This document shows, one piece after another, positions 36,158 through 42,788 of a stretch of DNA of 64,000 bases. The notes below the pieces were generated by a model, which searched no databases, was not told the origin of the DNA, and saw only the letters and a program-made list of their open reading frames with translations. The stretch lies in contig CAWDSK010000002.1 in the NCBI GenBank assembly GCA_963804995.1, positions 734,443-798,442 of the forward strand, read 5' to 3'. Source of the DNA: an uncultured Acidobacteriota bacterium. GTDB taxonomy: Bacteria; Acidobacteriota; Terriglobia; UBA7540. Position 1 is the first letter of the stretch. Each line of letters begins with the position of its first letter. The translations under genes and the position numbers were made by a program.

Positions 36158-36658
36158 ATGGCGTATCGCCGTCCTGGTCCGCTACAGGGGCTCAACGGAC
36201 CAGCTATACTCTCCCCACGAGCATCCCTACTCAGCGTGTCCGTGAACTACGCCACAACCAAACCTAGGCTGAAAAAGCCGCATGGTATTTGCTGCGCGGT
36301 CGGCTGAGTTCGTACTGAAAGTGCAACAAGAGATTTGGGCGGCGATGCTTGAGGACGCGCGAAGATGAACAAGTGACCCTCATCCGCTTCGTACCTCAAG
36401 CACCTTCTCCCGCCAAGGCGGATCTGCGACCCCTGGGAGAAGGTTGGAAGTCAAACCGCCCTCTCCGAGGGGAGAGGGTGGACCGCCGCCGGCGTTTTCA
36501 TCAGCCGGGGCGGGACGGGTGAGGGGTTACTTCACCACCCGATGAGCGGGACCCGCACCCAACTACGGAACGAGCAGCGCCTTTTCCAGTTTGGTTGCGG
36601 CCCCGCCACGTTTTTCCTCCGCTTGCTTCCCTCCCTAGCTTCGCGGAATAATGGGCTG

Positions 36659-39600
36659 ATGTCATCCCCGCTCAAGCTGAACCCCGCACAACTCAAAGCT
36701 GTTGAGCATGGGGAAGGCCCTCTGCTGATCATTGCCGGCCCGGGCAGCGGCAAGACTCGCGTCATTACACAGCGCATCGTTCACCTGTTGGCGGGCGCGG
36801 CAGCGGAAGATCCTCCCACGCTCATGGAGGCTGCGAACGTGGTGCTGTCGTCTGGCGAAGTGTCGGGTGAGACCCTTCAGCCTGAAAATTTGCTCGCGTT
36901 GACGTTTTCAGACAAGGCGGCGGCGGAAATGCGCCGTCGCGTGCGTGAAGCTCTGCCGGAGCTTGAAACACTCCCCAACATTTCTACCTTCCACGCCTTC
37001 TGCTTCAAGATGCTGCGCAAGCGCCATTTTGAGCGCATGCTCCTTGACAAGGTCGATGTGTGGATCTTCCTCCGCAAGCGCATGGAGCAGCTCGAACTGG
37101 AGTTCTACCAGAAGCTCGCGGAGCCGGGAGCGTTCCTCCACTCGCTGAATGAGTTCTTCTCGCGTTGCCAGGATGAGCTGATTGAGCCCGCGGATTTTGA
37201 ACGCTTCGCGGACGCGTTGGAAAAGGATTACCTCGAGCAGGCGCCTTCGCTCAACTCCGCCGAGCGCCTCCTGATGCAGCAGGAAATCCAAAAGAAGCAG
37301 GAACTCGCGCGCGTCTTCCGCAACAGCCGGAAGTTGCTTGAAGAGGCCGGCTGCTCCAGCCTCGGCAGCCTGATTCCGGAAGCGGTGCGCCTTTTCGATC
37401 GCGAGCCTGAGGTGCTGGAATCCTATCGCCAGCGCTTTCGCTATGTGCTGGTGGATGAATTTCAGGACACGAATTACGCGCAGGTCGAACTGCTGAAGCG
37501 TCTGGTCAAGCCGCCTTCGAATATCACCGCGGTGGGTGACGACGACCAGGCCATTTACCGCTTTCGCGGCGCCTCGCACGGCGCCTTCAGAATGTTTGAC
37601 GAGGCCTTCCCCGGTCACGAGACGGTTTTTCTCGACACCAATTATCGCTCAACCCGGCGCATCCTGCGCGTGGCCGACGTGGTGATCACGAAGAACGATC
37701 GCTACGAGGCCAAACCGAAACTGCGCGCGAGCCACGAGGAGGGCGGGCCCGTCTACCTGCTGCAATCCTCCGACTACCTGAGCGAGGCCGCGTGGATTGC
37801 GGATGAGGTCGCGCGCCTCGTGAAACAGGGCACACCCGAAGGTGACATCGCCGTCCTCTATCGCGCCCACAGCCATCGTGACCCGCTGGTCGAGCAATTC
37901 CACCGGCACAAGATCCCCTTTGTCATCCGCGGACTGTCGATCCTTTCCACCATCATCCTGCGCGACCTGCTGGCGTATCTGAATATCATCGCGTCGCCGC
38001 ACGATAACATCAGCTTGACGCGCGTGCTGCTGGAGCCGCGCTGGAAATTCCCGGAAGAGCTGGCGCTGGAGGTGCGCAAGCAGGCGGCGCGCGACCGCTG
38101 CTCGCTCCACGAGGTTCTGCAATCCTGGGAGAAGGCTGGGGCGGCGAATCGTCTGGAGCAGACCGGCTGGCCGGAACTCGCGCGCCTGCTCAACGAATTG
38201 CGCAAGTACGCGGAACACGCCCCGGTTACGGCGCTGTTCCGCCGGTTGATCGGCCGCCTGGAATTAACCTTCCTGCCGCATGATCCCGACGGCGGTTATG
38301 TGGAGGCTTTCCGCAAATTCCTGGAGGAATGGGAAGGCAAGAGCGCGTCGTGGAAGCTCGCGGAATTTCGCGAATACTTCCAGTACTTTGTCGAGGCCGG
38401 TGGCTCGATTGAAGCGCCCGGTCCTGAGAACGCCGCGAACGCCGTCCAAATGATGACCGTGCACGCCGCGAAGGGTTTGGAGTTTCCCGTTGTGTTCATC
38501 CTCAGCGTCGCCCCGCGGCGGTTTCCCCACAGCGAGCAGAAACCCGTCATCGAATTCCCCGACGCGCTGCGCAAAGGCCCTCAGCCCCCCGCCGACATCC
38601 ATCAGCAGGAAGAGCGGCGGCTTTTTTACGTGGCCCTGACGCGCGCCCAGGAACGGTTGTACGTTTCAAGCGTGTCGAAGTCGGGGAAAAAGACCTCCAT
38701 TTTTATCGACGATCTGCGCTCGAACCCCGCCGTGACGGCGCGCGACTTGGAGTTGATCCAAGTTCCCGATGTCCCACTTGATGCGGCTCCCAGCGGCTCC
38801 CAGCGCCTTGTCCCACCAGAAATCCCTGCCTCCCCGAAACCACAAGCCAATTTGTTTGGCGATGAGCCGAATCCGCCCGCCATCTATCCGCCCCTTGCGG
38901 AGTGGGCCAGTCAGCCGCAGCCGGTGAGCGCCGGGGAGAAACTTCAGCTCAGCGCGTCTGCCATCGAGACGTATGAGAATTGCCCGCAGAAATTCAAGTT
39001 CAGCCACTACCTGAAAATTCCCACCGGTCCGCAGCCGACTCTGACGTTCGGCAACATCATGCACCAATGCGTGCGGCACTACTTCGAATTGCGCAAGCAG
39101 GGCCCGGTGAAATTCGAAAAACTCGAAAGCCACTTCGAACAAATCTGGAAGAGCGCGGGCTTTGAAGATGAGTACCAGGAGCAGGCCTACAAGAAAGCGG
39201 GGCTTGAGCAGTTGCGCGACTTCGCAAAGAAACACGAAACCAGCAACACGCTGCCACTTGGCGCAGAGGCGCATTTCTCGCTCGATTTGGGCGACGTGAT
39301 CCTGGAAGGGCGTATCGACCAGATCAATCCACTTGAACAGCATTCCGTGGAACTGATCGATTACAAAACCGGCCGGCCGCCTTCGCAAAAGGACGCCGAC
39401 AAAAGCCTGCAGCTCTCCGTATACGCGCTGGCGGCGCGCGACCAGATGCGCTTGAATCCGGCGCGGCTCACGTTCTATAGCTTGACCCAGAACGCGCCGG
39501 TCTCAACTGTGCGGACCAACAAAGATCTGGATAAGGTGCTCACTGAGATTCGTGAAGTGGCGGCGCAAATCCGCCAACAACTGTTTCCACCCAAGCCCGG

Positions 39601-39661
39601 GTTTGTGTGCAAGTATTGCGACTACGTGCTGATCTGTCCGGCGCACGAAGAAGCCTTCTAG
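36659..39661 (+). CDS. UvrD/PcrA-like SF1 helicase fused to a C-terminal PD-(D/E)XK nuclease
   Basis: AGPGSGKT, VDEFQD, GDDDQAIYRFRGA, TVHAAKGLEF, LFYVALTRA; nuclease GRID, IDYKTG, QL..Y; Cys in ENCP and CKYCDYVLIC. Confidence 0.92.
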   Translation: MSSPLKLNPAQLKAVEHGEGPLLIIAGPGSGKTRVITQRIVHLLAGAAAEDPPTLMEAANVVLSSGEVSGETLQPENLLALTFSDKAAAEMRRRVREALPELETLPNISTFHAFCFKMLRKRHFERMLLDKVDVWIFLRKRMEQLELEFYQKLAEPGAFLHSLNEFFSRCQDELIEPADFERFADALEKDYLEQAPSLNSAERLLMQQEIQKKQELARVFRNSRKLLEEAGCSSLGSLIPEAVRLFDREPEVLESYRQRFRYVLVDEFQDTNYAQVELLKRLVKPPSNITAVGDDDQAIYRFRGASHGAFRMFDEAFPGHETVFLDTNYRSTRRILRVADVVITKNDRYEAKPKLRASHEEGGPVYLLQSSDYLSEAAWIADEVARLVKQGTPEGDIAVLYRAHSHRDPLVEQFHRHKIPFVIRGLSILSTIILRDLLAYLNIIASPHDNISLTRVLLEPRWKFPEELALEVRKQAARDRCSLHEVLQSWEKAGAANRLEQTGWPELARLLNELRKYAEHAPVTALFRRLIGRLELTFLPHDPDGGYVEAFRKFLEEWEGKSASWKLAEFREYFQYFVEAGGSIEAPGPENAANAVQMMTVHAAKGLEFPVVFILSVAPRRFPHSEQKPVIEFPDALRKGPQPPADIHQQEERRLFYVALTRAQERLYVSSVSKSGKKTSIFIDDLRSNPAVTARDLELIQVPDVPLDAAPSGSQRLVPPEIPASPKPQANLFGDEPNPPAIYPPLAEWASQPQPVSAGEKLQLSASAIETYENCPQKFKFSHYLKIPTGPQPTLTFGNIMHQCVRHYFELRKQGPVKFEKLESHFEQIWKSAGFEDEYQEQAYKKAGLEQLRDFAKKHETSNTLPLGAEAHFSLDLGDVILEGRIDQINPLEQHSVELIDYKTGRPPSQKDADKSLQLSVYALAARDQMRLNPARLTFYSLTQNAPVSTVRTNKDLDKVLTEIREVAAQIRQQLFPPKPGFVCKYCDYVLICPAHEEAF

Positions 39662-39698: not shown

Positions 39699-41234
39699 GT
39701 GATGGCGATGAACTCAATCCTGCTGGTCGTGCTGGGTGTGGCCTTGGGCGCGCTCATCGGTTGGCTGCTGGCGGCGACCCGCACCAAGTCAGAACTGATC
39801 AAAACCCAGGTTGAAGCGGAAGGCCGCGTGAAGGCGGCGGAAAGCTCGCGCGAGGAGGTGCGCGCGCAGTTGGGCGCGCTCGAAGCATCGCTCGATAATC
39901 GCAGCAAGGAAATCGACGGCCTTCAGCAAAAGCTGCGCGAAGAGGGCGAGCAGAAGGTTCGGGCGCAGACGGAACTCGAACAGGTCAGGAGTGCGCTTGC
40001 GGATCTGGGAGAACTGCGGGAACGCCTGAAGGGTGAGGGTGAGTCGCGGGTGGCGGCGGAGACCAAGCTGCGAGAGACCCAGGCGAGCCTGGAAGAGCAA
40101 AGAAAAGTGTTGGAGGAGGCCAAGAAGAACCTGACGGAAACCTTTCAGGCGCTCTCCTCCGAAGCGCTTAGAAACAATAACCGGGCTTTCCTCGAGCTTG
40201 CCAACAGCAAATTTGAAACTTTGCAGGCACAGGCGAAGGGCGACCTGGAGACGCGGCAGAAAGCCATCGACGGCCTGGTCGCCCCGCTCAAAGAATCGCT
40301 GGGCCGATACGAGCAACAGATCCTGGAGATGGAGAAGACGCGGCAAAAGGCTTATGGCACTTTGGATGAGCAACTGCGATCCCTTGCCCAGGCAAATCAG
40401 AAATTGGAGGAAGAGACCAAGCATCTGGCGAATGCGTTGAGTTCACCTCTGAAAGTCCGGGGCCGTTGGGGGGAACTCACGTTGCGTCGAGTCGTGGAGC
40501 TGGCGGGCATGTCGGAGCATTGTGACTTCACAGAGCAAGAGACGATTGCGACAGAATCCGGGCGACAGCGGCCTGACATGATCGTAAATCTCCCGGGAAA
40601 GCGACGCATCGCGGTCGATGCGAAAGTTCCGCTGCAATCCTTCCTCGATGCAGTCGACACTGAGAAGTCAGATGAGGAAAGAAGAAAGGCGCTCGCGACT
40701 CATGGGGAATTAGTGCGGGATCACATGAATCAGCTCGCGGAGCGCCGGTATTGGGAGCAAGTCGGCCCGGAGCTGGAACTGGTCGTGTTGTTCCTGCCCG
40801 GCGAATCTTTCTTCAGTGCGGCGCTGGAACAGGACCGGCAATTAATCGATGATGGGATGCAGAAAAAAGTCGTGCTGGCGACGCCCACGACTCTTATCGC
40901 TTTGTTGCGATCGGCAGCTTACCTCTGGCAGCAGGAAAAGATTACTCAGAACGCGCAGGCCATCAGTGATCTCGGCAAAGACCTCTACGACCGCATCCGC
41001 ACTTTCCTGGGCCACTTCAAGGCTATGGGCGGATCGCTGGAGCGTGCCGTGGATTCCTACAACAAGGCCGTGGGTTCGATGGAGAGCCGCGTGTTGCCCT
41101 CCGCGCGGAAGTTCAAGGAACTGGGCGCTGCAACGGGCGAAGAGATACCCGAACTCGAACCGGTGGATGAAGCGCCACGCGCCTTGGCGGCGCCGGAGAA
41201 GGAGCAAGGAGTGGGAAGCGAGGAGTCAGAATAA
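39699..41234 (+). CDS. rmuC: DNA recombination protein RmuC
   Basis: TM plus coiled coil, RGRWGELTL, RPDMIVNLP, VDAKVPL, LFLPGE, TPTTLIALL. Confidence 0.93.
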   Translation: MMAMNSILLVVLGVALGALIGWLLAATRTKSELIKTQVEAEGRVKAAESSREEVRAQLGALEASLDNRSKEIDGLQQKLREEGEQKVRAQTELEQVRSALADLGELRERLKGEGESRVAAETKLRETQASLEEQRKVLEEAKKNLTETFQALSSEALRNNNRAFLELANSKFETLQAQAKGDLETRQKAIDGLVAPLKESLGRYEQQILEMEKTRQKAYGTLDEQLRSLAQANQKLEEETKHLANALSSPLKVRGRWGELTLRRVVELAGMSEHCDFTEQETIATESGRQRPDMIVNLPGKRRIAVDAKVPLQSFLDAVDTEKSDEERRKALATHGELVRDHMNQLAERRYWEQVGPELELVVLFLPGESFFSAALEQDRQLIDDGMQKKVVLATPTTLIALLRSAAYLWQQEKITQNAQAISDLGKDLYDRIRTFLGHFKAMGGSLERAVDSYNKAVGSMESRVLPSARKFKELGAATGEEIPELEPVDEAPRALAAPEKEQGVGSEESE

Positions 41235-41282: not shown

Positions 41283-41318
41283 AAAAAAACTTCGGGGGTG
41301 CATCTCTGCACCCCCGAA
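41283..41318 (-). terminator. Intrinsic terminator
   Basis: Minus strand TTCGGGGGTGCA-GAGA-TGCACCCCCGAA followed by G and T7. Confidence 0.85.
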
Positions 41319-41345
41319 CGTTCCTTTCAATTTTCCGAAAACAAC

Positions 41346-41381
41346 TTACCTCTTCTTCTTTGCTTTCTTTTTGGCTGCCAT
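41346..41381 (-). CDS. 11-aa lysine-rich micropeptide MAAKKKAKKKR
   Basis: GAGGAG RBS at 41388-41393, own promoter upstream and terminator downstream. Confidence 0.7.
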   Translation of the reverse strand: MAAKKKAKKKR

Positions 41382-41446
41382 TCTATTCTCCTCAGTTCCT
41401 GAATTCTCGCGCCAGCATTGCTGGCGGAGCGCGTATTCAATCATCA

Positions 41447-41475
41447 TGTATAGAATTACAGAATTATCTTGTCAA
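41447..41475 (-). promoter_or_regulatory. Sigma70 promoter of the micropeptide unit
   Basis: TTGACA-17 nt-TATACA in AT-rich context. Confidence 0.65.
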
Positions 41476-41729
41476 GAGGAAAGTGATTGATGACAACGAA
41501 AAAGTGCAGCATGAGAGGTTCGTAAGAATAGTCGCGTGGGGTTGACGGGGACGTTTGCACAGGTCAGTGAGCACAGAAATGGACTCGCCAACCGCGAATT
41601 CGTTGGGTGGGAGTAAGAATTTCTGACCTTTGCGCTGACACGCGAGGTAAACTGGATACCATGCGCCGGCGCGGGAAGAAGAGCCTCGACGGCGCGACTG
41701 AAGAATCGAACCAGACGTGAATCCTTCCG

Positions 41730-42788
41730 ATGGCATCCAAGCAGAGAGATGAGGTTGCCCGAAAGATGACGATGCGCAACGCCCCCCGAACTACAGGATC
41801 TCAACCTGAAACCCTGCGATATATCCTCTGCTCAATCTGCGTCTTTTTGTTGGCCGTATCCTTCGCGTCCCTCGAAGGGCAGCAAGAAGTTCCTGCGCCC
41901 GGCCAGACTTTGAAAATCACGACGGAAGTCGTCAACGTTTACGCCGTCGTAAGGCAGAAGGGCGGCCGACTGCTTCCCGATCTCAACAAAGACAACTTTG
42001 CTCTCGAAGAGGACAAGCAGCCCCAGACCATCAAGTACTTTTCGCGGGAGACGGATACGCCACTGACCATGGGTATCCTGGTAGACACCAGTCCCAGCCA
42101 GGGCCGCGTGCTGGATGTGGAGAAGGAGGAGGCCAAGGCATTTCTTCGGCAGGTCCTGCGTCCCAAAGATCTCGTCTACATTCTGCACTTCGACGTGGAC
42201 GTGGAGTTACTGCAGGATTTCACGGCGGACCTGCGCCTGCTCGACAAGGCCATCGATGAAAACGTTATCAACGGCGGCGGGGGTGGTCCGACTCCGGGAC
42301 CTTTTCCCACCAGTAGCTCAGGCGGGGCGACGCACCTGTACGATGCGGTTTACTTGTCGGCGCGCGAACTGCTTAAGAACGAAGTCGGCCGCAAAGTTCT
42401 CATCCTGCTCACCGACGGCGAAGATCAGGGCAGCAGAATAAAACTTGAACAATCGATCGAGGCGGCGCAGAAAGCCGACATCATCGTCTATTCTGTCGAC
42501 ATCAGCGACCGCGCCTTCTATTACGGGCGCGGGATGGGTTTCGGCGGCGACTCAGTGCTGAAGAAGTTTTCCGATGAAACCGGCGGCCGGGTGCTGGAAG
42601 TCAATCGTGTCAAGGACACAGGCGCTGCGTTCCAGCAAATCGCCAGCGAACTCCGTACGCAGTATCTGCTTGGCTACACGCCCACCAACACCAAACTGGA
42701 TGGAACCTACCGGAAGATTCAAGTCAAAGTCCGCAACGGTGACTACAAGGTCCAGGCCCGCCGCGGATATTACGCTCCGGAAGGATAA
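41730..42788 (+). CDS. VWA domain protein (Acidobacterial VWFA-related type)
   Basis: ILVDTSPS MIDAS, THLYDAV, LLTDGED, ETGG, QYLLGYTP, RRGYYAP; start may be further downstream. Confidence 0.9.
   Translation: MASKQRDEVARKMTMRNAPRTTGSQPETLRYILCSICVFLLAVSFASLEGQQEVPAPGQTLKITTEVVNVYAVVRQKGGRLLPDLNKDNFALEEDKQPQTIKYFSRETDTPLTMGILVDTSPSQGRVLDVEKEEAKAFLRQVLRPKDLVYILHFDVDVELLQDFTADLRLLDKAIDENVINGGGGGPTPGPFPTSSSGGATHLYDAVYLSARELLKNEVGRKVLILLTDGEDQGSRIKLEQSIEAAQKADIIVYSVDISDRAFYYGRGMGFGGDSVLKKFSDETGGRVLEVNRVKDTGAAFQQIASELRTQYLLGYTPTNTKLDGTYRKIQVKVRNGDYKVQARRGYYAPEG

Follow-up and report, generated by a model that had tools for sequence, protein, structure and literature searches.

The window analyzed here is a 64,000-nt stretch of contig CAWDSK010000002.1 from an uncultured Acidobacteriota bacterium. 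On its minus strand lies a compact putative transcription unit for an 11-residue peptide, MAAKKKAKKKR, in which seven residues are basic (six lysines and one arginine), as a sequence-only reading of this DNA had counted. That reading had also described a promoter, a leader hairpin, a ribosome-binding site (RBS), the ORF and a terminator, all convergent with rmuC; the five signals and the neighboring gene are present where it placed them (Table 1). We refer to this unit as copy A and to a paralogue in the same genome (MAAKKAKKKKR, G000:C2:523882-523917) as copy B.

Table 1. Features of the copy-A unit (window 41,283-41,506, minus strand) and of its genomic context.
Feature	Position in window	Strand	Basis or remark
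UP-element-like T-tracts, CACTTT..CACTTT, 21 nt apart	41476..41506	-	conserved in alignment; putative role
-35 box TTGACA	41470..41475	-	sequence; invariant in 30/30 loci
-10-like box TATACA, 17-nt spacer to -35	41447..41452	-	last base non-consensus
Leader motif ACGCGCTCCG, family-specific	41425..41434	-	columns invariant across 27 sequences
5' leader hairpin CGCCAGC-AAT-GCTGGCG	41410..41426	-	sequence and folding
SD GAGGAG (41388..41393) with conserved spacer (GGAGAATAG)	41382..41393	-	sequence, alignment
Copy-A ORF, MAAKKKAKKKR-stop	41346..41381	-	sequence, homologue alignment
Intrinsic terminator: 12-bp stem with GAGA (GNRA-type) loop (41291..41318), then G, T7	41283..41318	-	
rmuC, convergent neighbor (context)	39699..41234	+	Pfam PF02646, E 9.5e-103
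UvrD-like helicase/nuclease (context)	36542..39661	+	synteny marker common to family f10
VWA-domain gene, divergent neighbor (context)	41730..42788	+	

The proposed TTGACA-17-TATACA promoter is present and its spacing is conserved, with the pattern TTGAC[AT]-17-TA[TA]ACA retained among homologues, but the -10 box lacks the consensus final T and was therefore not listed by a consensus promoter scan. The 161-nt copy-A RNA folds with z = -4.9, the terminator contributing most, and no Rfam family that might explain the locus came near its gathering score. Covariation in the leader, which the sequence-only reading had suggested as a check, is slight, with few compensatory changes in the hairpin; the terminator stem covaries more, with compensatory changes in four pairs. 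ACGCGCTCCG is invariant over the genera of family f1, more than hairpin pairing requires. Pairing of this motif with the SD, as in a switch that sequesters the SD, is not supported: the CUCC:SD pair called by RNAalifold is invariant without covariation, and its median probability across 33 single-sequence ensembles is 0.0. The GAGGAG-type RBS GGAGAATAG also marks orthologues in family f10, and the distance from stop codon to terminator is fixed at about 30 nt. The copy-A promoters of family f10 (L036, L040, L165 and others) share a conserved GTGACTTTGGT in the interval that separates the micro-gene from a divergent thiolase-like gene, some 30-35 nt ahead of the -35 box.

Homologues of the locus keep both reading frame and RBS. 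A DNA similarity search over 61 genomes (E <= 0.01) matched 35 of 36 same-family genomes, some weakly or partly, and the SD, ATG, frame and stop are all retained in each of the 30 loci fetched, this genome's included. Promoter and RBS served as anchors for 33 loci (one of 34 was left out), in which the ORF measures 33, 36, 39, 42, 45 or 54 nt, always a multiple of three with in-frame indels; leader lengths of 65-71 nt are spread over all three frames. Codon variants among 14 distinct 36-nt haplotypes comprise eight synonymous and two conservative changes (A>T, R>K), against a synonymous:nonsynonymous ratio of 17:73 for possible single changes. Ribosomes slip on A-runs, and AAA-AAA dicodons occur four times versus 40 expected in 73 distinct ORFs, a count that is only indicative because the sequences are related; the baseline for long ORFs of this genome is an observed/expected ratio of 0.62. 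This deficit fits selection against slippage. A 33-codon reading from an upstream in-frame ATG was discarded, since 16 of 33 homologues carry that ATG in a different frame. As judged by comparative sequence analysis, copy A is a real, conserved and unannotated gene whose frame is under purifying selection.

Synteny and length variation place copy A within a broader series of Lys/Ala-rich polypeptides. In families f1 and f10 alike, the gene that copy A faces is rmuC or the UvrD-like one, and copy A is thus orthologous across both; its downstream neighbor is convergent in 58 of the 60 loci that have one, and the neighbors of copy B vary. At the orthologous A locus the peptide is 10-17 aa long within family f1 and reaches 26 aa in family f10, where KKAAKK/KKPAKK repeats appear, and stand-alone versions of 80 and 118 aa begin identically to the micro-peptide. 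A continuum of length therefore runs from the 11-residue peptide into histone-H1-like Lys/Ala repeats. The micro-peptides are composed of 57% K, 21% A and 3% R, and what is conserved is charge and K/A composition, not length. Separately, a genome screen showed a single long H1-like ORF, G000:C9:2185 (-), which encodes a 124-aa protein with an acidic N-terminal half and a K/A/P-rich, H1-like C-terminal half. Palindromic REP-like repeats adjoin copy B (L031:5200-5420) and also the non-coding element described below (L437:260-460).

The closest resemblance is to H1-like proteins, namely chlamydial Hc2 (PF07382, NF038052), its Burkholderia-type counterpart (NF038053) and Pseudomonas AlgP with its C-terminal KPAA repeats, which in the accessible portions of PMC2848022 and PMC11894788 share K/A(P) repeats whose number sets protein length. 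Such variable Lys/Ala repeat number is found in the micro-gene as well. Unlike the 165-237 aa of Hc2, copy A has 11 residues, with one or two lysine tracts and no folded domain, and one micro-gene copy, unlike the H1-like proteins, stands under an NrdR-type operator. PF07382, NF038052 and NF038053 gave no hits to the 33-codon frame that holds the peptide or to relatives of 22, 25, 26 and 80 aa; a 118-aa relative matched HC2 weakly, below the cut-off (E 0.014, 16 bits versus a cut-off of 40). In the ESM Atlas the 80-aa relative falls among hypothetical clusters with a low recognition score, and HC2 appears weakly, in 15% of one cluster. Because the H1-like profiles failed, we do not file the gene as an Hc2- or AlgP-type member, but it may represent a minimal form of the H1-like Lys/Ala polycations. 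That the peptide belongs to no named family, as the sequence-only reading had stated, holds across the profile libraries and literature searched: neither the peptide string nor the gene class and its NrdR control was found described in the open-access library searched.

The gene is common in two families and sparse elsewhere in the phylum. The ORF pattern was found in 89 of 117 family-f1 genomes and in none of four sister-family genomes, and the reversed pattern gave no match in any of the 122 genomes of that set, seven of which are unpublished. One f1 genus, g230 (G426-G439), has the pattern in none of 14 genomes, with no tiny ORF found in two members by a looser pattern; natural loss is possible. 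Class-wide, the pattern occurs in 18/18 genomes of f1, 5/18 of f10 and 1/17 of f7 and in no other family, including Terriglobia families sampled at 0/19, 0/19 and 0/18. A looser start pattern matched 58 of 61 family-f10 genomes, and 27 of 30 translated f10 loci encode K/A peptides of 12-26 aa (one from the unpublished G761). Most other Acidobacteriota sampled lack the pattern, which is rare elsewhere in the phylum. Basic micro-ORFs of a different type (with RPKKKK) occur as a tandem pair, with an SD for each, in an Acidobacteriaceae genome (L179:2420-2555).

A scan of GTDB returned at least 120 matches, and 119 of those listed are in-frame ORFs of 11-14 aa, mostly titled Acidobacteriaceae or Terriglobia. 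Twelve of the matches listed are credible outside genomes of that type: four DPANN-type or unassigned archaea, two Patescibacteria, two Nitrospirota, and representatives of Limnocylindria, Binatia, FCPU426 and Nevskiales. Two genome hits carrying Dormiibacterota and Eisenbacteria titles were excluded as likely misbinned, given their leaders of Terriglobia type, and a Bacillales hit proved to be a long protein. Within the Nanoarchaeota, 19 of 121 genomes matched; 14 of these matches (centre genome included) are stand-alone ORFs of 9-15 aa with AT-rich, TATA-like DNA upstream, an SD and a T-rich tail, and two are long K-repeat proteins sharing the start. Among 120 Patescibacteria genomes sampled, no tiny ORF was found beyond the centre genome. 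At Nitrospirota-type loci (L201, L209, L515, L520, L522), one or two micro-genes follow a same-strand HARE-HTH gene (PF05066), and at high-GC loci (L457, L467, L482, L486, L504) two K/A micro-genes of 12-23 aa directly follow an AbiEi_2-like HTH gene.

A metagenome scan gave at least 114 distinct matches; all of those listed are in frame and encode 10-16 aa, and several lie in tandem as separate genes with individual SDs. Viruses were rejected as a source of further members: nearly all of 120 loose-pattern matches fall at internal starts or in phage proteins of greater length, and one is an 11-aa ORF without a clear SD. MA[AT]KKK starts are frequent in unrelated phage proteins. A collection of 15 billion proteins contains none of eight relatives of 20-80 aa. 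Homology across phyla is unprovable for so simple a sequence, and convergence of short K/A peptides is possible.

The promoter of copy B offers the clearest clue regarding function. The genome encodes nrdR (TIGR00244, 199 bits), and its ribonucleotide reductase (RNR) promoter carries two NrdR boxes 31 bp apart. An NrdR matrix was derived exclusively from the RNR promoters of relatives, where a pair is present in 22 of 30, using 35 distinct boxes (this genome's included); box pairs spaced 30-33 bp were counted when the pair scored above 12 bits. Micro-gene loci were sorted into classes B1, B2 and A by RBS and terminator rather than promoter, with four unclassified loci left out. Pairs are present at 14/14 B1 and 55/59 B2 loci (69/73 B-type), at none of 72 copy-A type loci, the window's included, and in 3 of 436 background promoters. 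Copy B of this genome has a pair of 28.8 bits with a spacing of 33, lying over its -35 and -10 boxes. Loss of boxes does not track loss of nrdR, as all four genomes with box-less B2 loci keep nrdR.

In the accessible text of PMC13584703, NrdR requires two boxes, in which C4, A6, A8, T9, T11 and G13 are conserved. Copy B shares with the RNR operons of the NrdR regulon tandem 16-bp boxes of this kind and 14-17-bp spacers over a sigma-70 promoter, but differs from them in its target, a micro-peptide gene, and copy A lacks the boxes altogether. Our spacings of 30-33 correspond to spacers of 14-17 bp. Since NrdR, by the available portion of PMC12051234, binds at spacers of 14-17 bp and represses in vivo at 15-17 bp, a spacing of 33 fits well and one of 30 lies at the edge; B-locus spacings are more often 30 and 33 than the typical 31-32. 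Overall, the promoter of copy B is a predicted NrdR target.

Only six pairs above 20 bits occur genome-wide, with copy B ranking third; the others lie at RNR, a D12 adenine methyltransferase operon, an N6/N4 methyltransferase, an MT-A70 methyltransferase and a non-coding element. The methyltransferase pairs (D12, N6_N4 and MT-A70, at G000:C6:379895, C3:1235557 and C6:1011354; L439, L438 and L440) suggest that NrdR may couple methylation or restriction-modification to dNTP supply, and we found no open-access paper linking NrdR boxes to restriction-modification or methyltransferase genes. The sixth pair precedes a stretch of about 400 nt with no obvious long ORF and a terminator at its end (L437:463-900; G000:C2 ~341960-342400, minus), which shows partial conservation in 12 of 18 genomes of the same genus and has no Rfam match at gathering score, which makes it a candidate NrdR-controlled ncRNA or small gene.

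Among metagenomic micro-gene promoters, 27 of 111 have an NrdR-box pair, versus 1.3% of shuffles. Twenty-five of the 27 have the same leader as L202, which is titled Binatia (a name that rests on the unpublished G443), and two belong to a high-GC lineage, so that the pair is found on the micro-gene in a second phylum as well. Kin are not independent, and the signal amounts to about three or four lineages; most lineages have no NrdR boxes on the micro-gene. DnaA boxes, at 4 of 111 metagenomic micro-gene promoters, gave no general signal.

To the anatomy, coding constraint, paralogy, length continuum and NrdR-type motif established here, the model that we favor, with moderate confidence, adds presumed transcription, translation, NrdR binding and DNA as the ligand: the peptide would be a non-specific polycation that neutralizes and compacts DNA, supplied constitutively from copy A and boosted from copy B when NrdR releases RNR. 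Copy A would act as a monocistronic housekeeping gene giving a stable mRNA of about 160 nt, with a 5' hairpin, a strong SD and a terminator, from which an 11-residue Lys/Ala peptide, probably of 10 residues after Met removal, would be made. This product would be unstructured and polycationic, comparable to histone-H1-like Lys/Ala tails cut down to one repeat, and may neutralize DNA and aid its compaction in a polyamine-like manner without sequence specificity. Derepression of copy B together with RNR when dNTPs are needed would tie peptide supply to DNA synthesis. The window's copy has no NrdR boxes, so its link to DNA is borrowed from the paralogue. Polyamines and protamines are likewise short polycations that neutralize nucleic acid; unlike them, the micro-peptide would be ribosomally made, with Lys/Ala instead of amine or Arg chemistry.

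Purifying selection, a paralogue in the same genome and the continuum into H1-like repeats bear out the sequence-only reading in its view of a real gene for a putative nucleic-acid-binding micropeptide. Among its functional options, a histone-tail-like peptide fits best; its analogy to eL41 and bTHX is weakened by the range of 10-26 aa at one locus, the near absence of Arg and the paralogue's NrdR-type operator, and a dual-function sRNA is a weak option given that the peptide is retained across lineages whose leaders and terminators diverge.

We consider it unlikely that the product is a tiny ribosome- or RNA-bound peptide filling an rRNA groove, analogous to bS22 (PF08213), eL41 (PF05162) or bTHX (PF17070), although such proteins are also very small, basic and often unannotated, and strong housekeeping expression signals and occurrence in both domains would suit that role. 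The site could be free in most carriers tested: this genome has no bS22 or THX match, bS22 was not found in four of four Terriglobia tested, and eL41 was not found in five of five DPANN carriers, where the control never passed the cut-off. Yet one Nitrospirales carrier also holds bS22, and the micro-gene loci have no conserved ribosomal-operon context. The known proteins are longer, contain Arg and occupy a fixed rRNA site (bS22 has 30 aa and is rich in Arg and Lys in the accessible text of PMC12123416), whereas K/A repeat indels vary the length of this nearly Arg-free peptide at a single locus. The ORF-containing frame gave no Pfam hit, and the peptide departs from the Arg/Lys-rich composition and the ~25-30 aa of that class, whose binding site lies between 16S h44 and h45. 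The NrdR-type operator of copy B also argues against a ribosomal role.

A peptide of +7 charge would bind any polyanion, and it might act more generally as a counter-ion, or modify condensates, with polyphosphate, nucleotides or RNA rather than DNA as partner, much as AlgP does for polyphosphate granules, to which this KPAA-repeat protein localizes according to the available part of PMC11894788. Conservation of charge only and tandem dosage copies are compatible with this role, but the neighbors show no link to polyphosphate genes and the NrdR-type control points to DNA synthesis; we regard it as improbable. Still less probable is that the RNA is functional, as an sRNA, a translation-dependent cis element or a lysine sensor, and the peptide incidental. 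The invariance of ACGCGCTCCG in family f1, the structured leader and the fixed stop-to-terminator spacing speak for it, and against it stand the retention of the peptide while leader and terminator differ among A, B, archaeal and other lineages, the lack of an Rfam match and the negligible SD-sequestering pairing; the convergent neighbor downstream of copy A excludes an attenuator or leader peptide. Chance alignment of signals, for which the non-consensus -10 might be cited, is effectively refuted by conservation in all 30 loci and in most family genomes against a reversed control of zero, and of the 2,560 TTGACA sites that the 7.55-Mb genome contains only three lead an SD, an ORF of 6-25 aa and a hairpin/T-run, namely copy A, copy B and one unrelated ORF.

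Returning to the DNA-neutralizing polycation, the NrdR-box pair is the first functional handle found for the peptide, and it renders the choice between DNA and ribosome directly testable through the predicted co-induction of copy B with RNR. It also likely extends the NrdR regulon to a micro-peptide and DNA methyltransferases. More tentatively, we propose that many uncultured bacteria and DPANN archaea encode a 9-17-residue polyamine-like or minimal linker-histone peptide, with some lineages splitting it into constitutive and NrdR-wired copies. If true, such split copies would parallel, in prokaryotes, the division between replication-coupled and replacement histone synthesis. The gene class lies far below the limits of gene callers and is unannotated, yet most genomes of two abundant soil families have it, and it also occurs in archaea. 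If the peptide coats DNA, it would add a missing, probably abundant component to the neutralization and packing of the chromosome.
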